DNA from: an uncultured Candidatus Saccharibacteria bacterium
Lineage (GTDB): Bacteria > Patescibacteriota > Minisyncoccia > Minisyncoccales > PEYH01
Assembly: GCA_964616145.1 (NCBI GenBank)
Contig: CAZTRD010000002.1
Location: 4,553 to 68,552, forward strand
DNA: 64,000 nucleotides
Direction: 5' to 3'
The notes under the pieces are model-generated. The model had not been told where the DNA came from. It searched no databases and was given only the letters and a program-made list of their open reading frames with translations. Below, one piece after another: positions 2,521 through 63,384 of this stretch. Both the position numbers and the translations under genes were made by a program. Numbering within the stretch: position 1 is the first letter of the stretch; each line of letters starts with the position of its first letter.

Positions 2521-3537
2521 ATGCAAGAAGCATTGCTTTGGGAGAAAAAAGAATCAAGGAAGGTTAAATGCCTTAATTGTTCTCATTATTGCGTAATCAA
2601 CGAAGGCAATCTTGGAATTTGCAATGTAAGGCAGAATATCAAAGGCAAACTATACTCTTTAAACCATGGTTTGATCTGCGCTATTGGGATTGATCCAATA
2701 GAAAAGAAACCATTATTCCATTTTCTTCCGGGAACCAATACTTTTTCTTTTGCCGCTCCTGGGTGCAATTTTGCTTGCGCCAATTGCCAGAATTGGCAGA
2801 TATCTCAAGGGCCAAAAATATTAAAGAAGGTTAATGGAGAAACTATCTTGTCAAAAGAAATTGTAAACAAAGCAAAAGAGTCCAATTGTCCTTCTATCTC
2901 ATATACCTATACAGAACCGACAATCTTTTCTGAATACGCAATTGAAACAATGAAAATTGCAAAAAAAGCAGGTTTAAAAAACATCTGGATCAGCAATGGA
3001 TATTTTTCCAAAGAATTGTTAAAAGAGATAATTCCCCTGCTTGATGCGGTAAATATTGATTTAAAATCTTTTGATGAGAATTTCTATCAAAAGAACTGTT
3101 CTGCCAAGCTTTGGCCGATTATAGACAATTTAAGAACTTTAAAAAAGAAAGGTGTTTGGGTAGAAGTCACGACTCTTTTAATTCCTGGGGTGAATGATAA
3201 AAAGACGGAATTGAGGGAAATCGCCAAATACATCAGAGAAGAATTAGGATCAAATGTTCCATGGCATATTACCAGATTTTTCGGCCAGTATTCATGGAAG
3301 ATGAAGAATATACCTGATACAACCTTAGAAAAACTGGTTGAAGCCAGAAATATCGGTTTGGAAGAAGGATTATACTATGTATATCTTGGCAATGTTCCGG
3401 GAATTGATTCGGAAGATACATATTGCCCTCATTGCAAGGAAAAACTAATAGACAGAAACGGATATGATATTCAGCGCTATGATTTATCTGGAAAATGTTC
3501 GAATTGTTTGTATAAACTAGATGGATTAATTCAATAA
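2521..3537 (+). CDS. amrS: AmmeMemoRadiSam system radical SAM enzyme
   Basis: CNFACANCQNW CxxxCxxC radical-SAM cluster motif, an N-terminal Cys-rich region, and the S-B-A gene triad context. Confidence 0.75.
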   Translation: MQEALLWEKKESRKVKCLNCSHYCVINEGNLGICNVRQNIKGKLYSLNHGLICAIGIDPIEKKPLFHFLPGTNTFSFAAPGCNFACANCQNWQISQGPKILKKVNGETILSKEIVNKAKESNCPSISYTYTEPTIFSEYAIETMKIAKKAGLKNIWISNGYFSKELLKEIIPLLDAVNIDLKSFDENFYQKNCSAKLWPIIDNLRTLKKKGVWVEVTTLLIPGVNDKKTELREIAKYIREELGSNVPWHITRFFGQYSWKMKNIPDTTLEKLVEARNIGLEEGLYYVYLGNVPGIDSEDTYCPHCKEKLIDRNGYDIQRYDLSGKCSNCLYKLDGLIQ

Positions 3538-3539
3538 AC

Positions 3540-4373
3540 ATGTCTTTAGTATTTGCGGCATTTTGTCCTCATCCCCCTATAATAATTCCAACTATAGGGA
3601 GCAAAGAAGATTTAAGACAAATCAATAAAACGACTTTGGCTTTTAAATCCTTAACTCAGAAATTAAAGGATTCAAAAGCTGAAACTTTAATCGTTATCTC
3701 TCCTCATGGAAATATCTTTTCCAATGTTTTTTGCATAAACACTTCCAAGGAATTCTTTGGGGATTTTTCACTATTTGACGACTTTTCTTCTCAATTTTAC
3801 TTTAATAATGATTTGGAATTAAACAATCAGATTATTGCAGATTGTTTGGATAAAAAAATACCATTGAAGAAAATAGAAGAGAAATCTCTTGATCATGGGT
3901 CTTTGGTTCCTCTCTTTTTCTTGAGCCAGAAGAATAAATTCAAAATCATTCCTCTTGGTTATTCGTTTTTAAGCATTAAATCCCATTTCAATTTCGGCAA
4001 ATCAATCCAAAAAACAATAACAGAAGAGAGATTCAAAAAAACTCTAATCGGAAAAAGAATCTTAGACAAAAAAGTGGCGGTTCTAGCCAGCGGAGATATG
4101 TCCCATAGGTTAAATCAGTCCGCTCCGGCTGGCTATTCTCCTTTTGGCAGGATTTTTGACGAAGCAGTGATCAGCTCCCTATTAAGCAACAATGCGTCCA
4201 AAATACTTGATATAGATCCCAATCTTTCTGAAAAAGCTGGTGAATGCGGATTCAGATCATTGGCAATCCTTTTGGGAATCTTAGATGGATTAAAAGCAAA
4301 ACCAGAAGTATTATCATATGAAAATCCATTTGGCGTAGGATATTTGACTGTTAATTTTTCCTTAAAAAAATGA
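3540..4373 (+). CDS. amrB: AmmeMemoRadiSam system protein B (Memo / LigB-like extradiol dioxygenase fold)
   Basis: Sits between the radical SAM and AMMECR1 genes with 3-4 nt gaps or overlaps. Carries CPHPP...ISPHG motifs typical of the Memo/LigB fold. Confidence 0.5.
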   Translation: MSLVFAAFCPHPPIIIPTIGSKEDLRQINKTTLAFKSLTQKLKDSKAETLIVISPHGNIFSNVFCINTSKEFFGDFSLFDDFSSQFYFNNDLELNNQIIADCLDKKIPLKKIEEKSLDHGSLVPLFFLSQKNKFKIIPLGYSFLSIKSHFNFGKSIQKTITEERFKKTLIGKRILDKKVAVLASGDMSHRLNQSAPAGYSPFGRIFDEAVISSLLSNNASKILDIDPNLSEKAGECGFRSLAILLGILDGLKAKPEVLSYENPFGVGYLTVNFSLKK

Positions 4374-4882
4374 ACCTATACTGTCAATTAGCCAAAAATA
4401 CTGTTTTCTCCTTTATCAAGGATGATAAGAGGATAAAAACGGATAATAATTTGCCGAAAGATTTCAATAGAAGAGCAGGTGTATTTGTCAGTATATTCAA
4501 TAAAAATGATTTAAGGGGATGCGTAGGAACATTCTTGCCAACGCAAAAGAATATAGCAGAGGAGATAGTCTCAAGCGCAATAAGCGCATGCCAAGATACG
4601 AGATTTTTGCCTCTTCAAGAAAAGGAGCTTCCTTTTCTGTCTTTTGAGGTATATATTTTAGATAAGCCGGAACCGGTTAAAGATATCAAGGAATTAAATC
4701 CTAAAAAGTACGGCATTTTAATCCGGTCATTTAACAAATCAGGCCTGCTATTACCGGATCTGGAAGGAATAGATAATACAAATCAGCAGATAGACATAGC
4801 AGCAAGGAAGGCAGGAATAGATTTAAATGAAGAAGAAATTACAATATATAAGTTCCTAGCTAAAAAATATGTATCTGATTGA
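4370..4882 (+). CDS. amrA: AmmeMemoRadiSam system protein A (AMMECR1 domain)
   Basis: LRGCVG motif (AMMECR1 signature LRGCIG); 170 aa; start overlaps amrB by 4 nt. Confidence 0.75.
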   Translation: MNLYCQLAKNTVFSFIKDDKRIKTDNNLPKDFNRRAGVFVSIFNKNDLRGCVGTFLPTQKNIAEEIVSSAISACQDTRFLPLQEKELPFLSFEVYILDKPEPVKDIKELNPKKYGILIRSFNKSGLLLPDLEGIDNTNQQIDIAARKAGIDLNEEEITIYKFLAKKYVSD

Positions 4883-6755
4883 TGTAATCCCTTTAATTAA
4901 AATACCGTATCCGGGAGCTCAAACCTTTCAATACTTCTCAAGCAAAGAATTAAAGAAAGGTTCTTTAATCTCTATTCCTGTTGGAAAAGCAAAGGCTCAA
5001 GGAATTGTTTTCAATTGTTCTAATCTTCTGCAGAAGAAAATGGAAATCAAGAAATCAAATATCGCCCTAAGATCAATAAAGGAAATTATTTCTTCAGAGC
5101 CGATAGTAAATGAAGGCCAGATACAATTGTCCCAATTTGTTTCTGATAAATATCTGGAGCCATTAGGAATTTCTTTAAAGTCATTCATTCCTCCGAGCAT
5201 TTTAAAAAGGAAAAAATTTCCTTTAAATATTTTCCCAAAAGAAAATATAAAGAACAAAAAAAGATCCATGCCTATCCTTCTTTTAAAGGAGAATAGAATA
5301 AAAGAATATTCAAAAGCTATCAAAGAAACATTAGAAAAGAATCAAACTGTTCTTCTCCTCTGCCCGGAAATATTAAAAGCTGCTGTTTTTCTTAAGGACT
5401 TAAAAAAGATTTCTGCAAAAACAGCATTCTATCATGCTGAATTGAAAAATTCTCAAAAATTAAAGATCTGGCAGGATATCTGCCAGAATAATACAGATAT
5501 TGTTTTGGGAACAAGATCCAGTATCGGCCTCCCCTTCTCCAACCTTGGCCTTATCATAGTAGATGAGGAAGAAAGTGCTAGTTTTAAGTCCTGGGATCAG
5601 CATCCCAAATTAAATGCCAAAACCGCAGCAATCAAATTAGCAGAAATTCATGGAGTTAAAATCATTCTTGGAACGAACTTTTTAACAATAAATTCATACT
5701 ATCGCATTAAAAACAATGGGTTTGAATTCATAAATGATTTTAAGAAAGATAATTCCAAAATAGATATTATAGATATGCAAAAAGAAAGAAAATGGGGAAA
5801 TTTTTCTTTACTTTCTGAAAAATTAAAAAAAGATATTAAAAAGAATATTGAAGAGAAAAAACAAATTCTTCTTTTTGTTAATAGAAAGGGACTAGCAACC
5901 TCAATAATCTGCAAAAACTGCGGATATGTAGAAAAATGCCCTCATTGCGATTCTCCAATGGTATATCACAAGCAAAAAGATAAAGGAATATTGATATGCC
6001 ATTATTGCTTGTATTCCAAGAATCCTCCTGCATATTGCCCAAGTTGCAAAAGCACTAATATTAAATACATAGGAGCAGGAATAGATAAAGTTTTTCAAGA
6101 AATCAGTAATTTTCTTAAATTCAATCTTTTGGACGCAAAAGTAGCGATTTTACACAAAGAATTACTGGAAGATAAGCAAAAAAGAATAATTGATGGTTTT
6201 AAGAAGAAAAAAATAGATATTCTTTTGACTACGCAAATTGCTTTTAAATATCAGAATCTAAAAACTGATCTCTGCGCTGCTGTTCTTCCTGATTTCTTGC
6301 TTAATATTCCTGATTTCTCTGCCAATGAAAAGGCATTCAGAATATTTAATATTTTAAAGAATATCTCCAGAAAAACAATTATCCAAACCTACAAGCCGGA
6401 TTTAAGCATTTTCAAATATTTAAAAGATGATGATTTTGAGGGATTTATCAAGGAAGAATTGGAACTAAGAAAAATGTTTTCCTATCCTCCGTTCTCAGAA
6501 ATCATTAAATTAACATTAAGTAATAAATCATATAAGGTCTGCCTATTCAGAGCCAAAGAATTGGAAAAGAAATTATTAAATATATTTTCTCAAAAAGAAA
6601 TATTAGGCCCCTCCCCTGCTTTTATCTCTAAGATAAAGGGGCGATATATTTTCAATATTATTATCAAATCTGACAACCAAGAGAAGAAAAATAGATTAAA
6701 AGAGATTGTCTCTAACTTCTGGGAGATAGAAGTTGATCCAGAGAATATAATTTAG
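4869..6755 (+). CDS. priA: primosomal protein N' (PriA)-like protein with degenerate ATPase motifs
   Basis: Colinear with PriA: VLLLCPEI (ALVLVPEI), VLGTRSS, IIVDEEES (DEEH box) and the C-terminal Cys4 zinc fingers CPHCDSP...CHYC...CPSCKS. The Walker A GSGKT is absent (ENRIKEY in its place). Confidence 0.7.
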   Translation: MYLIDVIPLIKIPYPGAQTFQYFSSKELKKGSLISIPVGKAKAQGIVFNCSNLLQKKMEIKKSNIALRSIKEIISSEPIVNEGQIQLSQFVSDKYLEPLGISLKSFIPPSILKRKKFPLNIFPKENIKNKKRSMPILLLKENRIKEYSKAIKETLEKNQTVLLLCPEILKAAVFLKDLKKISAKTAFYHAELKNSQKLKIWQDICQNNTDIVLGTRSSIGLPFSNLGLIIVDEEESASFKSWDQHPKLNAKTAAIKLAEIHGVKIILGTNFLTINSYYRIKNNGFEFINDFKKDNSKIDIIDMQKERKWGNFSLLSEKLKKDIKKNIEEKKQILLFVNRKGLATSIICKNCGYVEKCPHCDSPMVYHKQKDKGILICHYCLYSKNPPAYCPSCKSTNIKYIGAGIDKVFQEISNFLKFNLLDAKVAILHKELLEDKQKRIIDGFKKKKIDILLTTQIAFKYQNLKTDLCAAVLPDFLLNIPDFSANEKAFRIFNILKNISRKTIIQTYKPDLSIFKYLKDDDFEGFIKEELELRKMFSYPPFSEIIKLTLSNKSYKVCLFRAKELEKKLLNIFSQKEILGPSPAFISKIKGRYIFNIIIKSDNQEKKNRLKEIVSNFWEIEVDPENII

Positions 6756-6761
6756 GGTAGT

Positions 6762-6798
6762 AGGTGGTTCCCACGGCTATATTCCGTGGGAACCACCT
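6762..6798. repeat. perfect 15-bp inverted repeat AGGTGGTTCCCACGG-ctatatt-CCGTGGGAACCACCT, 7 nt after the priA stop
   Basis: Read directly from the sequence. It forms the left edge of the high-GC island and overlaps the stop codon of the minus-strand 37-aa peptide. Confidence 0.8.
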
Positions 6799-6890
6799 CT
6801 CATTATCACCAGGGCCAAGATGCCCAAGAAAGCGAGGACGAATGCGCTAAACGAGATGATAATCCCCCACACCCTCCTTGTTTTCTTCAT
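6777..6890 (-). CDS. 37-aa single-TM peptide MKKTRRVWGIIISFSAFVLAFLGILALVIMRGGSHGI (high-GC island A)
   Basis: ATG at 6890 preceded by GGGAGGG, then a basic N-terminus and a 22-residue hydrophobic helix. The stop lies inside the palindrome. Not in the ORF track (<60 aa). Confidence 0.35.
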   Translation of the reverse strand: MKKTRRVWGIIISFSAFVLAFLGILALVIMRGGSHGI

Positions 6891-7074
6891 CTGCCCTCCC
6901 GTGATGGAAAGAATGAGGCCAATTCCTCATTCGAGCTATCTTTATTCTATCATCTTGAAAGGATTCTGCAAATTGAAGGACGCTCTTGATATTGACCAAG
7001 GGGAAATAATGTAATAATAAGAATGTAGCTCCTTGCGAGTTCACAACTATGCAAGGAAAGGGAGATGAGAAGTA

Positions 7075-7614
7075 ATGAAAAGAACTCGAGTGGCCATGGT
7101 TACTGTACCCCTTTTCGGAAGCTCTGGGGTTATCGAGGGAGAAGACGGAACAAGGTGGCCGTATATAGAGCTGGGGGAGCATACTTGCGTTCTCCCGATC
7201 TGTGCAACGGCTGGGTCAGTTCGTATTGGTCTCATTAGAGAGCTGAAGCCGATTCTTGAAGAGGTGCGAACCAAAGTGCCAAGCGACTTCAGAAGAGGTG
7301 AGCCGGACAACGAAGTAGTGGCCAGGGAAATCCTTGTCCGCAAGACAGGAATTGAACAGGGCGATATTCTCCATATTGTCCCGTTCAACTTCCAGACTCC
7401 CGGCTGGCCTCCGAACGTTGTCTTCGACAAATCGAAAAGGTGGCTGGCCTGGACTCGTAGTCAATGCGGGAGGAAAGTCAGCTGGTTTGATCTAGGAGAA
7501 ATCCAGGCCATGCTGACGGCTAGCGACACACCCATCAAGGATGCCCCGACGTGGCATCTGCTTGCCTGGATCGTCATGCAATACGACCAGGGGAGTCTTC
7601 CAGGTGAGCCGTGA
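7075..7614 (+). CDS. hypothetical 179-aa protein in a high-GC island; weak Nudix-box-like segment GEPDNEVVAREILVRKTGI
   Basis: Codon usage is high-GC, unlike the flanks. An AAAGGGAG SD-like element lies upstream. An intrinsic terminator follows immediately. The antisense and overlapping ORFs in this island are GC artefacts. Confidence 0.45.
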   Translation: MKRTRVAMVTVPLFGSSGVIEGEDGTRWPYIELGEHTCVLPICATAGSVRIGLIRELKPILEEVRTKVPSDFRRGEPDNEVVAREILVRKTGIEQGDILHIVPFNFQTPGWPPNVVFDKSKRWLAWTRSQCGRKVSWFDLGEIQAMLTASDTPIKDAPTWHLLAWIVMQYDQGSLPGEP

Positions 7615-7626
7615 ACTCAAACGAAG

Positions 7627-7667
7627 ACGGACCGCCCCAATTTCTAGGGTGGTCCGTTTCTTTTTTT
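7627..7667 (+). terminator. rho-independent terminator (ACGGACCGCCC...GGGTGGTCCGT followed by TTTCTTTTTTT)
   Basis: 11-bp GC-rich stem with one G-U pair and a 10-nt T tract, 13 nt after the stop of the 179-aa gene. Confidence 0.65.
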
Positions 7668-7684
7668 ATATCTCAATTTCGCTA

Positions 7685-10519
7685 TTAGAATCCAGGTAGG
7701 AATCTAAAAATAGAATAGAAAATAGATACGTACATGCTATCAAATATGGAGCTTGATTTGTTGCTTACAATCGTAATATCGGTTTCTACATATTTTTGGT
7801 TGTAGGCAGCGGGGATAGCATCAGACCACTTTCCTTGATTTTTCAATCCCTTATATTCTCCTATCCATATTTTGCAGGGATTTGTAAAATCCTTGTTTGT
7901 AGGAATCTTCCATGCGACGGATTTTTTAGAAGCTAATATGTTATTAGCTATTCTGTAGTAGGTATTGCTACAAACTGCAGCCACGCTCAATCTATCCACT
8001 CCAGCGCTATCCCAAGGTATAGTGTATCTGCTTCCCTGTATCCATGTACTGTTAGGCGCAATCCCTGAAGTTATATATCTGCCTGTCAAGGTAAAATAGT
8101 CATCGCTTACATCCCAATAACCATATATCAATGAAGATGAATCTCCTTCTATGCTTAATTTGTATTTCCCTGGCTTGAGATAACCGCCGTATGGACATAA
8201 TTGATTTTCAGCTAAAGTAAGAGTGTATTTGCCGCTTATTGCTGGGATATTTTCTGCCACATAGCAATTATTGTTATTCTCTAAACTAATCAACCCCATT
8301 TTTTTTATGGTCGTAATCTCCCCTGTGCTTTTCCATTTAACCGTAATTGGCGTATTAAAGGATAGTTTTTCTCCTCCATTGGGATAAACTACGGTTAAAC
8401 TTCTTGCCTGATAATCTTCGGAGAACCAACCTCCTACGCTTGCTTTTTTCATATCAAGGTTAAATGAACAAGTTGTGCTAGTTCCTAAATTAGAGCAATA
8501 ATCTCCCCAGAAACTATTAAATCTATAGCCCTGATTAGCTATGGCCGTTAATGTGACGGCAGTTCCCGAAGCAAGCGATACATCGCATTTAGTTCCGCAA
8601 TCTATTCCAATAGAATCACTGATAATTTTCCCCATCTTCTTGTATTGGCTAAGCAGTTCAATATTCAAATGGTTCAATTCTTCGTTATTATCTTTCTCAA
8701 AAATAGCTTTTGCATCAATATTTTGATTGATTATTCCATTGCATTTGTAATAATCGCCACTACAGTATCCCCCTGACCAGCTAACGAACTTTGATCCCTT
8801 ATCGGCATTTGCGGTCAGGGTAAATTTCGTTCCCCCTTTCAATGTTTCCGTACAATCGGCTCCGCAATCTATTCCAGCGCCTGTTATCCTCCCAGAGCCA
8901 GTCCCCGATGTAGTAGCATTAAGAACGTATGAACCGCCAGTAGAATAGAATGTTGCTGTTACTATTTTATCATTATCCATTGTAATTACGCACTTTCCAG
9001 TACCAGAACAATGACCAGACCATCCGGCAAAATATGAATAACCCCATTCGCTGGGCTCTGCTGTTAAGGTAACTACTGTTCCCGGCGTGAATTCGTCATA
9101 GCAAATACCACCGCAATCAATTTTCCCTACATTGCTTTTGACAACTCCAGCATTTTTAGCATCTCCTGTTTTCTCGATTTTTAGGGAATTTAAATCATTG
9201 TATATATAAGAAGATATACTGAAATAATTGTCGCTTTCATCTAATATCCTGCTAGTTAAGGCATCATATATCCTGATTCTGTATAGGGTGTTGAATTGAG
9301 GAGAATGATTCCTGACATTCCAAAGGTATTTGCCAGATTCGGTAGGATAATTAAAGGTTAGCATATATACTGCGATGGGCGTGGCGGAATTTCCGGTAAC
9401 CAGTTCTATATTAATCTTAGATATTTCTTTTTGTATCCATTTAATCTCGTAGTCATAGTATTCCTTTAATTGCTCTCCCCCATTAGGGGACAATATTTGC
9501 AATGACGGTTCAATATTGGCATTTGCTGCAGTAACCGTAAAATAATTATCAGAAAGATCATATACGGAAGTATTCTGCATTGATACGACCTTAACTTTTA
9601 ATTTCTGCCCGACATAGCTGGATTTCGGCTCTATATATAGTTTATATTCTCCTATAGTAGTATCTCCAAGAGCTCCTGTTGAAACTCCTCCTGTCGGGAA
9701 ATTAGGAATTAAAGAGCATGTTTTAAAAAGTGTTCCTTTACAGAAGTATATTTTTACTTTTCCGGGGTTTTGCATTTTCCAGATAATAGAATGGGTCTTC
9801 CCGGCCTGAAGCATTTCTCCTCCATTTGGAGAAACAACTTTAATAGAAGATGTTGTTGGAGTAGTAGCCGTCTTATTAAAAGTAACTATCACTGTCTTCA
9901 TGCCACTAACTGATATCGTGCAGGTTGCCCCGGAAGTGCTAGTGCATCCTGACCAATTAGCAAAAGTTGAACCAGACGAAGGAGCTGCTTCAAGGATTAC
10001 AGAGGTGGTACTTGAATATGTTTCAGTACAATCTGATCCGCAATTTATCTTTCCATCAGTACTGGTAACTGTCCCTGAACCTGTTCCGCTTCGTGAAACG
10101 GTCAATGAATTTGTAACCGTATTGGATCCTTCTATTATCAACTGCAAATTAGATGTTTTGGTTACTGATCCTCTATTGGCAGTAAATTGAATGTAATACT
10201 TTCCAGGAGAAACATTTGGAGATATTAAGATCTTGGCGGTGCTGGTGCAGGTCGGGCTGCAAGAACTTGGGCTCTTGCTTAAAGTTACTCCATTAGGCAA
10301 TCCTGAAACGGAAAAGCTGACTGATGAAGATTTCCCTGAAAGCAATGAGGTTTGAATGTATATCGTCTTAGTAATATTAGTTGTTGGCTTAGCTGTAGTT
10401 ATCGCTCCAGGCGTAAGTGTAATTGAGAAATTAAGGCTCGTCTGGGCTTTAACGGTAAAACTAAAAAATGTTATTCCCAAGATTAGGAATAAAACTGCAA
10501 AAATCGATTTTTTTGTCAT
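7685..10519 (-). CDS. large secreted surface protein with at least four B-repeat-like modules (G.IDCG..C.E....V.LTA....F..WSG)
   Basis: N-terminal signal/TM segment and S/T/G-rich linkers. The CGxxC...LTA...WSG module recurs about four times; 944 aa. Confidence 0.55.
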   Translation of the reverse strand: MTKKSIFAVLFLILGITFFSFTVKAQTSLNFSITLTPGAITTAKPTTNITKTIYIQTSLLSGKSSSVSFSVSGLPNGVTLSKSPSSCSPTCTSTAKILISPNVSPGKYYIQFTANRGSVTKTSNLQLIIEGSNTVTNSLTVSRSGTGSGTVTSTDGKINCGSDCTETYSSTTSVILEAAPSSGSTFANWSGCTSTSGATCTISVSGMKTVIVTFNKTATTPTTSSIKVVSPNGGEMLQAGKTHSIIWKMQNPGKVKIYFCKGTLFKTCSLIPNFPTGGVSTGALGDTTIGEYKLYIEPKSSYVGQKLKVKVVSMQNTSVYDLSDNYFTVTAANANIEPSLQILSPNGGEQLKEYYDYEIKWIQKEISKINIELVTGNSATPIAVYMLTFNYPTESGKYLWNVRNHSPQFNTLYRIRIYDALTSRILDESDNYFSISSYIYNDLNSLKIEKTGDAKNAGVVKSNVGKIDCGGICYDEFTPGTVVTLTAEPSEWGYSYFAGWSGHCSGTGKCVITMDNDKIVTATFYSTGGSYVLNATTSGTGSGRITGAGIDCGADCTETLKGGTKFTLTANADKGSKFVSWSGGYCSGDYYKCNGIINQNIDAKAIFEKDNNEELNHLNIELLSQYKKMGKIISDSIGIDCGTKCDVSLASGTAVTLTAIANQGYRFNSFWGDYCSNLGTSTTCSFNLDMKKASVGGWFSEDYQARSLTVVYPNGGEKLSFNTPITVKWKSTGEITTIKKMGLISLENNNNCYVAENIPAISGKYTLTLAENQLCPYGGYLKPGKYKLSIEGDSSSLIYGYWDVSDDYFTLTGRYITSGIAPNSTWIQGSRYTIPWDSAGVDRLSVAAVCSNTYYRIANNILASKKSVAWKIPTNKDFTNPCKIWIGEYKGLKNQGKWSDAIPAAYNQKYVETDITIVSNKSSSIFDSMYVSIFYSIFRFLPGF

Positions 10520-44615: not shown

Positions 44616-44947
44616 TTCGGGCGTGTAAGAACATCTAATAGTGAACGCTTTTTTAGTTTAATCTACACCATAAATTAAACTATCGAATTTGAGCATTCTC
44701 TACCACTGAAAAACTTATTATAAAACTAAAACCGGCTGGAGTGCAGCACTTGTTATATTGCGCTACTTAACGCAGCACAGCACAACAGAACGCATCGCAA
44801 TTCCAACCGGCAATTTTATTTTACCAACTCAATAACACTTGTCAAGATTCCAACTCTTCATCTTGATATTTTCATGTCTAAGGATGACAGTGTAATTTAT
44901 CTTCTGGCAAGCAAAACTACCCCTCCCGGTCGCCAGAACGATGCTCA

Positions 44948-45118
44948 ACGATGCTGTGTGCCCCGGTCTAGAATTTACACCTATCAAGTCATAGAGGGTC
45001 TTCAAGTTATAATTTCATTCAAGATTTGACCCGTCTCGGTCGGAGCATATATTTCAATTCTAGCACAAAATGAGACAAATGAGACACAGGAAAGGGATAT
45101 ATTGGGGTGTCTCATTTT
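44948..45118 (+). repeat. about 171-nt repeat element, copy 2, directly abutting high-GC island B
   Basis: See 20109-20281. Confidence 0.8.
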
Positions 45119-45126
45119 AAGACAAA

Positions 45127-45160
45127 GCCCCTAGCCTCGGTTTACACCTTAGCTAGGGGC
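45127..45160 (-). terminator. GC-clamp hairpin GCCCCTAGC...GCTAGGGGC, 30 nt after the stop of the 607-aa gene
   Basis: 9-bp stem; a weak T-rich tail on the minus strand. Confidence 0.45.
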
Positions 45161-45189
45161 GGGATCTCTGATCAAGTGGAAATAGCGAC

Positions 45190-47013
45190 TCATCCTTGCG
45201 CACGCTCGAGGTTCGCGTTGACGGTTTTGTACAACTCCGCCAACTCCGGAGACAACGGATCGGGAGCGAACTCCGCAACCACTGCAAGTGCTTGAGCGAG
45301 GCCTTCTTCACCCTGTCCGTTGAAGGCGGTTTGATACGCCTTCGTGAGACGAGCAAGAGGCTCTTCCAGAAGTGCAACCAAGGCTTCTGCATCTTGGCAG
45401 AGTTCCTGGTTAAGCTCTAGCTTGCCGTCTTGGATGTAGAGAATGCCCGCTCCCATGAAGCACGTTGCGATGGTCTTGGCTTCGTTGTAGTAGGGCCTGA
45501 ACGTTGAGTTGGCAGCCATGTTCTTGGCGAATCTTCGTAGAATCTCGCCAATTAGGTAAGCTACCATCTCTGGCCCAAGCTGGCCTTCGAAGCTCGCTTT
45601 GATACCCAGCATAGCCTTCAAGCCCAAGATCGTCGCCTTGGTCTCCTCGAAGCTCGGCTTGTGAGCTCCAAAGGCTGGTTTGATCTTGGCGTTGATGAGC
45701 CATGGGTGTCCAAGCTCGTGAGCGATGACAGCGATGAGATGGGCAAGCAGACTGAAGTGCTTCTCAAGCCACTGTAGAGTCTTCTGCCCGAAGCACGTTC
45801 GAATCAGGTGCTCGAACTGTGCTTGACGAATCTTCATCGTGAGCACGTCGAGGATAGCCTTCATCCCCTGCTCTTGGACCTCCGATCTGTTCGGAACCGA
45901 TTGCCCCGCAAGTCGGAAATCCACCGTCCCACCAGCCATGAGGATGAACGCGTCAGCGTCGATCCCCTCGAGCTTCTTGACGTATTCACTGTCGCCGGCT
46001 TCTGCCCCGAACGGTGCGATCGCCCTACGCAAAGCAGTGATAAGACGAGCAAGTTCCGTAGAACGATAGAGCACGCGGAACTCCGGAGCGACGGTGGTTG
46101 GATGTTGATACCCATCCTCCATCATGTGAACCGGCATCACTCTCTGGTTTGGACCGATCTTCAACCAGGCCCAGTCGACATCCGCCCAGACCTCCTCAGT
46201 GTCTGAAAGATTGGATTCAACGATAGCGTCCTTGAGAGCTCGGAAGTAGTTCCGATATGCTCTCGCCACAGATACTTGTTCGAGGGGAAGCCCGGTGTCT
46301 CCCATAGCGTCACGAAGGGATCGAATCAGGACTTCAAGAATTCCTGTGATCTCTCCGATCTCCTCGGGAAATGCGATCACGAATGGGACTTCGCATAGTT
46401 GAGCAACGACGTCCCTGGAAAGCTTGCCCTCGAAGAACCCACCTTCGGACCTGACCAGCACACTGTAGTGATTTGGACAGGCCTGGCTCACGACTTCCTT
46501 GAGTCCAGGATCTTCCCTCAACCCGAGCTGATACGGCACGACGACCTTCGCTCGCCACGCGAAGAATAGCCGATCGAATGCAGCGGCAAGCGGTAGCATG
46601 CCTCTCAGCAGAATCCCCTCGAGAATCGAGAGGCCGTCTGAACGATCAGCTAAGGCAAGCATCATCGTATCTTGAGCTCGAACAACTGGCCAGACAACGA
46701 GCTCGAAGAACTGTTGAAGCTTGACTGGATCGTCTTGAGGAAGCTCACCGAGAGTAGCAGTCCTCTGCGCTGCGTACTGCACCGCAAGATCGAGGGGTAT
46801 TGCCAACCCGATTTCCTCAAGCAATCCGTAGATGTGGGCGCGCGAATCGGGACGTGTCATCACGAAACGCTCGCTTGCCTCCAAAGCTTGCTTGAGATCC
46901 CCTTCGAAATCGCGATTCCCGGTAGAGATTGATACGCCACCTGAACGTCCTGGGTGTAAATCTGCCAAAAAGGCAGCCCATTCTTGACTCCGTCTTGATC
47001 GTGGGATCATCAA
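45190..47013 (-). CDS. high-GC 607-aa gluzincin-type zinc metallopeptidase-like protein (HELGH...E), possibly M3/M32-like
   Basis: IAHELGHPW HExxH with a Glu 24-25 residues downstream; GGAAGGAG SD 5 nt before the ATG; GC-rich codon usage. The internal antisense ORFs are artefacts. Confidence 0.5.
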   Translation of the reverse strand: MMIPRSRRSQEWAAFLADLHPGRSGGVSISTGNRDFEGDLKQALEASERFVMTRPDSRAHIYGLLEEIGLAIPLDLAVQYAAQRTATLGELPQDDPVKLQQFFELVVWPVVRAQDTMMLALADRSDGLSILEGILLRGMLPLAAAFDRLFFAWRAKVVVPYQLGLREDPGLKEVVSQACPNHYSVLVRSEGGFFEGKLSRDVVAQLCEVPFVIAFPEEIGEITGILEVLIRSLRDAMGDTGLPLEQVSVARAYRNYFRALKDAIVESNLSDTEEVWADVDWAWLKIGPNQRVMPVHMMEDGYQHPTTVAPEFRVLYRSTELARLITALRRAIAPFGAEAGDSEYVKKLEGIDADAFILMAGGTVDFRLAGQSVPNRSEVQEQGMKAILDVLTMKIRQAQFEHLIRTCFGQKTLQWLEKHFSLLAHLIAVIAHELGHPWLINAKIKPAFGAHKPSFEETKATILGLKAMLGIKASFEGQLGPEMVAYLIGEILRRFAKNMAANSTFRPYYNEAKTIATCFMGAGILYIQDGKLELNQELCQDAEALVALLEEPLARLTKAYQTAFNGQGEEGLAQALAVVAEFAPDPLSPELAELYKTVNANLERAQG

Positions 47014-47209
47014 TACTCCTTCCCTTCTTCATTTTCCACTTGTATCAGATTGACAAGGTGCGCTATCACCCCCTCCTTTAGAAGGTGATTGTTTTGTGAT
47101 TTTAGAATAATCTCTAGAAATAGTCAACGAAGGTTTTTAAATGCTTAGGATTATAAAAAAACTGTTATTTACAAGCATTTTTATTAATTAATAAAAAAAA
47201 TAAATTAAG

Positions 47210-47725
47210 CTACCAATACCAAGGTGGAAGTTTTAACTTTAAAGATTTAATATTCCTTTCTAATAAAATATTACGTGCGACTTCTTCTATTTTTATGTCT
47301 CCCCTATCTAATTTAGTATGACAATTTGGGCACAACTTAATGATATTCATAAAACAATTTGGCCCCCCTTTTTCTTTTGGAATAAAATGAGCTTCTTCTA
47401 GATATGTTTCTTCGCCGCAAATTTCACAAAGTTTTAATTCTGATAATTTTTTATTATTTGCTTTCAATAAATTTTCGCTATCCTTTTTCTTCAGTCCAAG
47501 TATTCCAATCCATCCTTGTCGACTACCAAAACCACTTAAGGTTGGCCTTCTGATCATCCATCTATCAGCCATTTTTTTCAAGCCCCAGTTTTTATCGTGA
47601 TAAAATTCTTGCCAATCTTGTTCCAAAGTATGGCCAAGTCTTTTTTCTACATCAAGCATCTTAGATGTTTTAGTTCCTTTTGGTTGAGGTAAAAATTTGT
47701 GGTTTTTTGGACTTCTAATAGTCAT
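47210..47725 (-). CDS. HNH endonuclease
   Basis: CEICGEE...EAHFIPKEKGG...CPNCH HNH motif. Confidence 0.6.
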   Translation of the reverse strand: MTIRSPKNHKFLPQPKGTKTSKMLDVEKRLGHTLEQDWQEFYHDKNWGLKKMADRWMIRRPTLSGFGSRQGWIGILGLKKKDSENLLKANNKKLSELKLCEICGEETYLEEAHFIPKEKGGPNCFMNIIKLCPNCHTKLDRGDIKIEEVARNILLERNIKSLKLKLPPWYW

Positions 47726-47768
47726 AATTTGATTCCTCTCGGACTTTCTCGATACTACAACCTGATTG

Positions 47769-47839
47769 CTGCGGGGCTAGGATTCGGACCTAGATTAATT
47801 GGTTCAGAGCCAATCGTGCTACCATTACACTACCCCGCA
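47769..47839 (-). tRNA. tRNA-Gln (anticodon CUG)
   Basis: Hand fold: U1-A72 acceptor TGCGGGG/CCCCGCA, T-arm CTAGG-TCCGAAT-CCTAG, anticodon stem ATTGG/CCAAT with loop CTCTGAA. Confidence 0.7.
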
Positions 47840-63014: not shown

Positions 63015-63384
63015 TTGCCCAAGTAGATAGTAAGCCGAATTCTGTTTCCAATAAATTGGACGGCAATCATTTGTCTTGGCCAAAAATCTCTTTTTGGCTC
63101 CAGCGAGTTACCTTTACCCTGATAAATTTGATAAATCAAATTTTTAGGGATTTACTCTTGCACCCAGGTAGGGATTTAGCCGTTTCATTGCCTAAGTTAC
63201 CTTAGACACTTATCCTTTTTCAAGGATAGTTTCTGATTCTCACCAGAAACCGTCTCTGTTCGCACCCCTCTATTACTAGGGACGGGTATTGCCCGCTACC
63301 ATTTCTAGTTTTAAAAACTAGGCGAGTGTTCGGACTTTCCTCGATGAATTAAATTCACCGCGATTGCCTAATCTACTTGAGCAA
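63015..63384 (-). ncRNA. rnpB: RNase P RNA (bacterial type A)
   Basis: GAGGAAAGUCCG (P4 5' strand) and ACAGAAUUCGGCUUA (P4 3' strand). P1 forms between CUCAAGUAGAU and AUCUACUUGGG. A terminator hairpin AACCGCAAAAUGCGGUUUUU lies at about 62985-63005. Confidence 0.7.

Follow-up and report, generated by a model that had tools for sequence, protein, structure and literature searches.

What is the GC-rich segment that separates priA from a large surface-protein gene in a Candidatus Paceibacterota contig (CAZTRD010000002.1; the 64,000 nucleotides of it analysed here are called the window), and do its two small genes, one for a 179-residue protein on the plus strand and one for a 37-residue peptide on the minus strand, belong together? 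The best explanation, which we hold to be rather more probable than improbable, is that they form two adjacent, separable units: a dead Nudix gene, and a type-I-toxin-like peptide block with a palindrome that acts at the RNA level. Unit 1 (6992-7667, +) would be a monocistronic gene for a stand-alone protein of ADP-ribose-pyrophosphatase (ADPRase)-type Nudix fold, which would bind a nucleoside-diphosphate-X ligand, either ADP-ribose or a related compound, with Lys/Arg in place of Mg2+, and act as a sensor or sequestering protein, not as a hydrolase. Unit 2 (6762-6972, −) would be an accessory block of ~230 bp with its own promoter, a 5′ hairpin, a strong Shine-Dalgarno sequence, the peptide and a 3′ stem-loop. 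In its full-length mRNA the Shine-Dalgarno sequence would be paired with the 3′ part of the coding sequence, holding off translation until the transcript is remodelled or processed; the product may be a type I toxin-like or other tightly controlled small membrane-active peptide, and the palindrome would serve in RNA, in 3′-end formation or protection of the peptide mRNA.

Every feature that an earlier note on this DNA had described is found where it was placed, and the segment (GC content ~45-56%, vs ~33% for the window) belongs to the genome. Assembly chimera or contamination is ruled out by an independent, identical contig in ENA, which matches 6953-7960 at 100% identity and spans the right junction, and by syntenic orthologues; contigs of one sister lineage, from four assemblies, cover partly or fully the order priA, hairpin, peptide, gene. 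The closest match of the window's PriA in the genome collection is a Paceibacterota metagenome-assembled genome (MAG; 83% identity), and Paceibacterota MAGs carry an annotated orthologue of the 179-residue protein. Orthologues P0003 (186 residues) and P0002 (176 residues) occupy the same chromosomal place in two sister Paceibacterota lineages, where the gene order radical-SAM, Memo, AMMECR1, priA, gene, large surface protein, ychF is kept; the three lineages are approximately equidistant from one another.

Unit 2 and the gene upon which it converges comprise the following features:

4869-6755, +: priA, with PriA_3primeBD, Zn_ribbon_PriA and PriA_C domains and a TAG stop at 6753-6755
6762-6776 / 6784-6798, −: the palindrome, a perfect 15-bp inverted repeat (AGGTGGTTCCCACGG / CCGTGGGAACCACCT) with a 7-nt loop
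6777-6890, −: the unannotated gene of the 37-residue peptide (MKKTRRVWGIIISFSAFVLAFLGILALVIMRGGSHGI), with a basic N-terminus and one membrane helix
6805-6814, −: anti-Shine-Dalgarno sequence CCCUGGUGAU, within the 3′ portion of the peptide's reading frame, predicted to pair with AUCAC..AGGG at 6894-6905
6894-6900, −: strong Shine-Dalgarno sequence GGGAGGG, separated by 3 nt from the ATG of the peptide, identical in the homologous locus L012
6911-6932, −: conserved 8-bp hairpin in the 5′ untranslated region (5′-UTR) of the peptide mRNA (GAAUGAGG / CCUCAUUC), the sole copy in the window
6944-6972, −: peptide promoter, TTTGCA, 17 nt, TG-n-TAGAAT (extended −10)

Peptide and palindrome make up a separate block of ~230 bp directly 3′ of the priA stop, present in the window and in the P0002 lineage and absent from the P0003 lineage (loci L002 and L007-L011); the spacer between priA and the plus-strand gene measures 326 bp in the former sister lineage and 92 bp in the latter. 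As the three lineages are equidistant, the block may have been gained in an ancestor of two of them or lost in the third. In the lineage that lacks the block, no terminator is visible ahead of the plus-strand gene. Conserved between the window and L012, the locus representing the P0002 lineage, are the promoter (TTGAAA-17-TGnTAGGAT in L012), the 8-bp 5′ hairpin, GGGAGGG, the start codon, the position of the stop in the loop and the long 3′ stem. The 5′ hairpin has two viral matches, both of them AT-rich terminator hairpins of a single virus and unrelated to it.

When folded against shuffled controls, the peptide mRNA gives z-scores of −5.0 and −6.0 in the two lineages, and the consensus structure consists of the 5′ hairpin, a long-range helix and the terminal stem. 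Within the long-range helix, the lineages differ by a compensatory change of U-A to C-G and by changes of A-U to G-U and of G-C to G-U. Such a fold resembles that of aapA1, whose full-length transcript impedes its own translation until 3′ processing activates it (PMC5416894); in the peptide mRNA, a block on translation of the primary transcript is a property of the predicted fold. Like the type I systems aapA1/IsoA1 of Helicobacter, hok/Sok and dinQ/agrB (PMC5416894; T1TAdb, PMC8594479), the block thus combines a single-helix peptide in the range of 30-50 residues, transcribed from its own promoter, with a structured full-length mRNA, predicted long-range occlusion of the Shine-Dalgarno sequence, a stable 3′ stem-loop and an accessory distribution; the peptide is small (<60 residues), hydrophobic and encoded in its own transcription unit.

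Several observations weigh against a toxin. The peptide has no homologue in known toxin families, the block is single-copy in the window, and neither a conserved plus-strand (antisense) promoter nor a conserved small RNA was found in it, the sole visible antisense source being read-through of the convergent priA operon across a hairpin that lacks a U tract. Only two distinct peptide sequences are available, so that covariation is thin, amounting to four double-sided changes, not all of which lie in well-aligned columns. Of the type I toxin-like peptide proposed by the earlier note, the toxin-like mRNA fold thus stands, and, as no antisense or antitoxin RNA has been identified, the label itself stays an analogy: that the peptide unit works like a type I toxin is a reasonable hypothesis, and a type I toxin-antitoxin system is not established. 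In the paper library searched, no paper joins type I toxins with Patescibacteria, so that the peptide gene would be a type-I-toxin-like module in a phylum from which that library has none.

The same facts leave room for a serious competitor, which we consider possible although on balance unlikely, namely that the peptide is an ordinary small membrane protein (a regulator or complex subunit) with a structured mRNA and no toxin-antitoxin role. It would account for the single copy, the lack of toxin likeness and of an antisense RNA or promoter, and for the observation that the peptide is conserved solely as a membrane helix; however, sequestration of a Shine-Dalgarno sequence by a distant segment and very strong mRNA structure typify genes whose translation is suppressed, and presence or absence among sister lineages suits an accessory or selfish module better.

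The plus-strand gene, whose open reading frame (ORF) starts 184 nt from the peptide ATG, contributes these features to unit 1:

6992-7020, +: putative promoter, TTGACC, 17 nt, TAATAA
7031-7056, +: 5′-UTR hairpin CCUUGC/GCAAGG, holding the invariant 15-nt box CTTGCGAGTTCACAA (7032-7046)
7075-7614, +: 179-residue ORF, encoding a protein of predicted ADPRase-type Nudix fold with a fully degenerate Nudix box (D71...I93)
7627-7667, +: intrinsic terminator, stem ACGGACCGCCC (7627-7637) / GGGTGGTCCGT (7647-7657), followed by TTCTTTTTTT

The family to which its product belongs is very rare: an exhaustive HMMER search of 1.84 billion cluster representatives yields six proteins, to which a profile search adds a seventh (176-198 residues), a word-indexed search retrieves the 179-residue protein only, and a metagenome scan with three family sequences returned only loci already known. 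Single-sequence searches of Pfam, PHROGs, NCBIfam and PADLOC find nothing for it except a short catalase-peroxidase-like stretch (residues 110-141, 32 residues; E 0.003 in NCBIfam, 0.06 in the PDB). Descent of this stretch from KatG was rejected, the KatG-like residues not being conserved in the family and the segment forming a β-strand in the structural model, and the similarity is treated as chance. The protein is a single domain, with no further Pfam, NCBIfam or PHROG domain.

Both sequence profile and predicted structure place this domain among the ADPRases. A profile built from six members matches Nudix ADPRases and the methanol-dehydrogenase activator of Bacillus methanolicus (8zr8, 9jax, 8wv3) with E 0.015-0.065 over positions 47-174. 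Whereas AlphaFold2 is uninformative from the single sequence (predicted local distance difference test score, pLDDT, 38), it returns a confident model from a seven-sequence alignment (pLDDT 87.1, predicted template-modeling score 0.81) with the Nudix fold, which is defined as an α/β/α sandwich of ~130 residues with a loop-helix-loop. Its top 50 Foldseek matches in the PDB are exclusively Nudix ADPRases or nucleoside diphosphate (NDP)-sugar hydrolases (probability 1.00, E ~1e-8 to 1e-7, TM 0.52-0.66), and the viral structure library BFVD yields Nudix matches too. The nearest relatives in sequence as well as structure are thus ADPRases, and the match includes their N-terminal β domain. The ADPRase / NDP-sugar hydrolase subfamily, represented by 8zr8/8wv3/9jax (B. 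methanolicus ACT), 3o52 (E. coli YffH), human NUDT5, 1mk1 (M. tuberculosis) and 1v8i (T. thermophilus Ndx4), also shares with the 179-residue protein a length of about 180 residues matched in full, a C-terminal helix with an Asp, and a proline ~15-16 residues downstream of the Nudix box, which marks ADPRases (Dunn et al. 1999 as summarised in PMC5389931). Here this proline is P109, 16 residues past I93 and aligned with the P of SPGF in 8zr8; the C-terminal Asp is retained as D156, and E56 and K58, at ADPRase-type positions, are conserved as well.

The box itself is another matter. Mapped without gaps onto D71-I93, the 23-residue consensus GX5EX7REUXEEXGU is departed from at six positions:

Nudix box position 1: canonical G, here D71
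Nudix box position 7: canonical E, here P77
Nudix box position 15: canonical R, here E85
Nudix box position 16: canonical E, here I86
Nudix box position 19: canonical E, here R89
Nudix box position 20: canonical E, here K90

The only positions kept are U17 (L87), G22 (G92) and U23 (I93), and the PF00293 box is therefore not recognisable; the Glu of the strand before the box ('ElPaG') is K67 in the protein. Invariant throughout the family are K67, P77, I86, K90, P109 and D156. The Nudix-box-like segment noticed earlier is thus supported by a whole-domain profile match and by a confident model with Nudix proteins only in its top 50, and R89 and K90 do stand where the catalytic EE is expected; the RE of AREIL, on the other hand, was misread as the RE of the box, being off register by one position.

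Because all metal-binding and catalytic residues of the box are replaced, hydrolysis by the canonical mechanism is not expected from the sequence. The protein most likely is a Nudix-related one, modelled with an ADPRase-type fold, that has lost its catalytic residues, and most likely a ligand binder rather than a hydrolase. Such proteins have precedents: the human TRPM2 NUDT9-H domain, whose box is mutated, binds ADP-ribose (ADPR) but does not hydrolyse it (PMC4974056); Nudix proteins that are not enzymes form an acknowledged class (PMC5389931); in the DBC1 family, the Nudix homology domains are non-catalytic and NAD metabolites are their predicted ligands (PMC5389931); and Nudix homology proteins have also been reported in transcriptional regulation and channel gating (PMC5389931). 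It is from NUDT9-H and this non-enzymatic class that we infer a non-hydrolytic binder of nucleotide-diphosphate ligands. The 179-residue protein shares Nudix fold and mutated box with the non-catalytic domains of TRPM2, DBC1/CCAR2 and Nudix-related regulators; unlike those, which are fused to or lie within an output module (channel, DNA-binding), it stands alone, and, apart from the fold, nothing in its sequence relates it to them.

Other results pull away from this assignment. None of six family members matches Pfam NUDIX (PF00293), even at E up to 10, and the sequence-level link to Nudix proteins is marginal (E 0.015), so that the fold assignment rests on a structure predicted from a shallow alignment; in addition to the degenerate box and K67, identity to the ADPRases is as low as 11-17%. 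Moreover, a non-canonical catalytic site may exist in the protein. That it has remained catalytic, as a Nudix-fold hydrolase or transferase with a non-canonical catalytic set, nonetheless appears unlikely: the fold and P109, D156, E56 and K58 are conserved, the catalytic base varies among Nudix enzymes (PMC4974056) and the Nudix clan also includes isomerases and glycosylases (PMC5389931), but none of the three metal-ligand positions still has its Glu (two are occupied by an invariant I and K, the other by R), exchanging nothing more than the Nudix box ended ADPR hydrolysis in NUDT9 chimeras (PMC4974056), and amino-acid divergence as high as that of this gene is unusual in a metabolic enzyme.

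This divergence is striking in its context. Between lineages, the two genes compare as follows:

PriA C-terminus: amino-acid identity 84-86%, nucleotide identity 82-83%, nonsynonymous divergence (dN) 0.075-0.082
Nudix-like gene: amino-acid identity 43%, nucleotide identity 60-65%, dN 0.53-0.54

The other housekeeping neighbours have dN values of 0.047-0.097, and the Nudix-like gene evolves ~6-7 times faster than its neighbours at the protein level. Diversity-generating retroelements or repeat-templated variation were considered and set aside, the window being without repeat, template copy or paralogue. The gene is nevertheless real, since the annotated frame is the sole one consistently open across six homologues, and its last codons (LPGEP) are conserved among orthologues.

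Its expression signals are conserved too. The TTGACC −35-like hexamer that the earlier note had seen in the divergent spacer is kept in orthologues, as part of a TTGACY-17-TAATAA arrangement common to all three lineages, although a consensus promoter scan makes no call at 6992-7020 (+). The 15-nt box CTTGCGAGTTCACAA is exact in 13/13 orthologous loci, even though nucleotide identity of the coding sequence is only 60-65%, and occurs once in the window; an imperfect palindrome (TTGCGA..TCACAA), it forms the loop and upper stem of the small 5′-UTR hairpin. The stem of this hairpin persists, a single C-G pair having become U-A, and Rfam has no match to it. The 39 matches to the box in viral contigs are within chance expectation. 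The box may serve as an operator or as a regulatory element in the RNA. The strong terminator ascribed to the gene is present, and orthologues each have another GC-rich stem followed by a T run in the same place.

Peptide and Nudix-like protein might instead form one two-gene system, either a nucleotide-signal sensor or sponge coupled to a membrane-disrupting effector, in the manner of a defence or abortive-infection module, or a peptide and its antidote. The genes are divergent, their promoters lying back to back with −35 elements ~20 bp apart; both exceed the host in GC content; to date the peptide is known only from loci with the Nudix-like gene next to it, and the latter shows the rapid evolution of conflict genes. 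However, neither peptide nor palindrome accompanies the Nudix-like gene in the P0003 lineage or in a second clade of the family (clade 2: P0004, P0006, P0007), which lies on other AT-rich contigs between genes for an ADP-forming acetyl-CoA synthetase subunit and GAPDH, with a promoter and terminator of its own. The pair, for its part, is known from two lineages, in which co-occurrence weighs little; the island has no match in PADLOC or PHROG and no blastn match in plasmid or phage records, and no relatives were found in viral contigs. The two genes are accordingly treated as separable because the Nudix-like gene is found on its own in clade 2 as well as in one sister lineage: the divergent pair of the earlier note is not an obligate unit, and a two-gene system is improbable. 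The negative searches of plasmid and phage records, viral contigs, PHROG and PADLOC also led to a mobile-element, phage or plasmid origin being dropped. Directly 3′ of the clade-2 gene P0004, locus L006 encodes a 177-residue Cys-rich protein (4530-5063, +) with an apparent signal peptide and the C-terminus CCFCCCCNH, next to which comes a PKD-repeat protein.

The base composition of the Nudix-like gene is anomalous in every lineage. The three orthologues have 50-54% GC and a GC content at third codon positions (GC3) of 0.57-0.59, vs ~0.30 for host genes, and the clade 2 genes are 9-13 points GC-richer than their flanks. At four-fold sites of conserved residues, orthologue identity is nearly random at 0.31 (26 sites), vs 0.53 in priA (53 sites), and changes polarised by majority rule imply an equilibrium GC of ~0.52 for the gene, vs 0.35-0.38 for priA, an estimate based on small numbers and saturated sites. 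On this sequence evidence a simple recent, unameliorated horizontal transfer fits poorly, and is best called unexplained rather than refuted; nor is the island a recent private insertion, since it is common to lineages between which synonymous divergence is already heavy. Other causes of the high GC were tried and rejected. Overlapping antisense genes or mRNA structure do not account for it (no antisense ORF is conserved, and the mRNA z-scores scatter inconsistently between −6.0 and +1.65), no structured RNA underlies the GC-rich patch (no Rfam match at gathering thresholds, and only noise with E ≥0.85 in 6600-7800), and the window contains no repeat or template copy that would explain it.

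A more ambitious construction would make the island a conflict locus of an episymbiotic candidate phyla radiation (CPR) bacterium, in which a fast-evolving dead-ADPRase decoy, sponge or sensor for ADP-ribose-derived signals, its GC3 of ~0.58 kept by some unknown force at an equilibrium particular to the gene across several lineages, would sit beside the first type I toxin-like module described in Patescibacteria, checked by antisense read-through from priA; we regard it as speculative and doubtful.

Equally doubtful is that the minus-strand unit is a non-coding small RNA or a bidirectional terminator region in which the 37-codon ORF is fortuitous. The untranslated hairpins are far better conserved than the interior of the ORF, the peptide is only ~35% identical between window and L012, and no gene caller predicts it; in a 15-billion-protein collection it is not called as a gene. 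Yet the L012 homologue has 38 residues, starts in the same context behind a strong Shine-Dalgarno sequence and likewise has its stop in the loop, so that the frame, on whose conservation in homologous islands the earlier note had staked its peptide, is conserved in the one such island found. Identity by codon position is 0.61/0.71/0.42, highest at the second and lowest at the third, and both peptides have a hydrophobic helix of 23-24 residues, with maximal 19-residue Kyte-Doolittle averages of 2.81 and 3.31; shuffles that are open and equally hydrophobic arise in 1/20000 and 0/20000 cases. The kept frame and length, the codon-position pattern and the improbable helix together indicate that the peptide is very probably translated, and selected as a membrane helix.

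With the peptide read as a gene, the palindrome falls at the 3′ end of its transcript. It begins 7 nt past the priA stop and overlaps that of the peptide, which lies in its loop (6777-6779), one arm encoding the last codons (RGGSHG). In L012, two substitutions remain paired, as U-G wobbles, in RNA of the minus strand but give C-A mismatches in that of the plus strand, breaking the symmetry of the DNA; as pairing is thus preserved only in the minus-strand RNA, the sequence comparison points away from a DNA site and towards a stem-loop at the 3′ end of the peptide mRNA, serving 3′-end formation or protection from exonucleases. The palindrome may also be a barrier to the convergent priA transcript. 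It resembles intrinsic terminators in being a GC-rich stem-loop at a gene 3′ end between convergent genes. It differs from them in that, as had been noted earlier, neither strand has a T/U tract directly after the stem, which also weighs against the proposed reading and for which reason it is not a canonical intrinsic terminator, although the neighbouring gene uses the canonical stem and T run; furthermore, its loop contains the stop codon, so that a terminating ribosome would melt the stem.

The earlier suggestion of a recombination or protein-binding site, or of any DNA-level mark of the island boundary such as a mobile-element end, is very unlikely: a perfect palindrome without a T tract does sit at the exact left edge of the GC-rich segment, in a block that is present or absent between lineages, but it is the only copy in the window at ≤3 mismatches, with no partner repeat at the other island edge or elsewhere in the window, no target-site duplication visible at the junctions, no adjoining integrase or transposase gene and no matches in viral contigs, and the L012 substitutions spare RNA pairing only.

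Around the two units, an AmmeMemoRadiSam trio (radical SAM, Memo/LigB and AMMECR1; 2521-4882, +) lies directly upstream of priA in the same direction. On the other side, a 944-residue surface-type protein (7685-10519, −) has an InlB B-repeat (Flg_new_2) and Kre9_KNH Ig-like repeats; its orthologue of 1067 residues is 71% identical (dN 0.19), evolving faster than the housekeeping neighbours and far slower than the Nudix-like gene.

The window has a second GC-rich island (44800-47050; 53-59% GC, GC3 0.60), occupied by a 607-residue ORF (45190-47013, −) with a HELGH motif and a partial match to DUF7897 only (E 1.7e-14), for which a search of 5.8 billion proteins found no homologue but itself. An ORF for a 171-residue HNH endonuclease (47210-47725, −) adjoins this island and a tRNA-Gln (47768-47839, −), and the two may represent a mobile-element or integration context for it. 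Two RNAs were also identified: a LOOT RNA (RF03000; 42820-42933, +), a motif of unknown function, with an Rfam score of 93.8 bits vs a gathering score of 46.4, and a class A bacterial RNase P RNA (63016-63379, −; 144 bits), a housekeeping RNA behind another locally GC-richer patch.

In summary, CPR/Patescibacteria genomes are rich in unannotated 'hypothetical' genes, and one of these here resolves into a new, rare ADPRase-derived family. Judging from its seven sequences, it would be a very rare, fast-evolving, non-catalytic branch of the Nudix proteins that is so far restricted to AT-rich CPR-type genomes; the peptide block next to it is sampled by two sequences. The strand-specific G-U evidence shows that a perfect 'palindrome' is explicable as mRNA 3′ structure, and the persistence of GC-richness at apparently randomised synonymous sites in AT-rich genomes is a compositional anomaly worth following. 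For the protein family itself, the combination of a lost catalytic motif and fast evolution is more in keeping with a ligand sensor or decoy than with an enzyme of metabolism.

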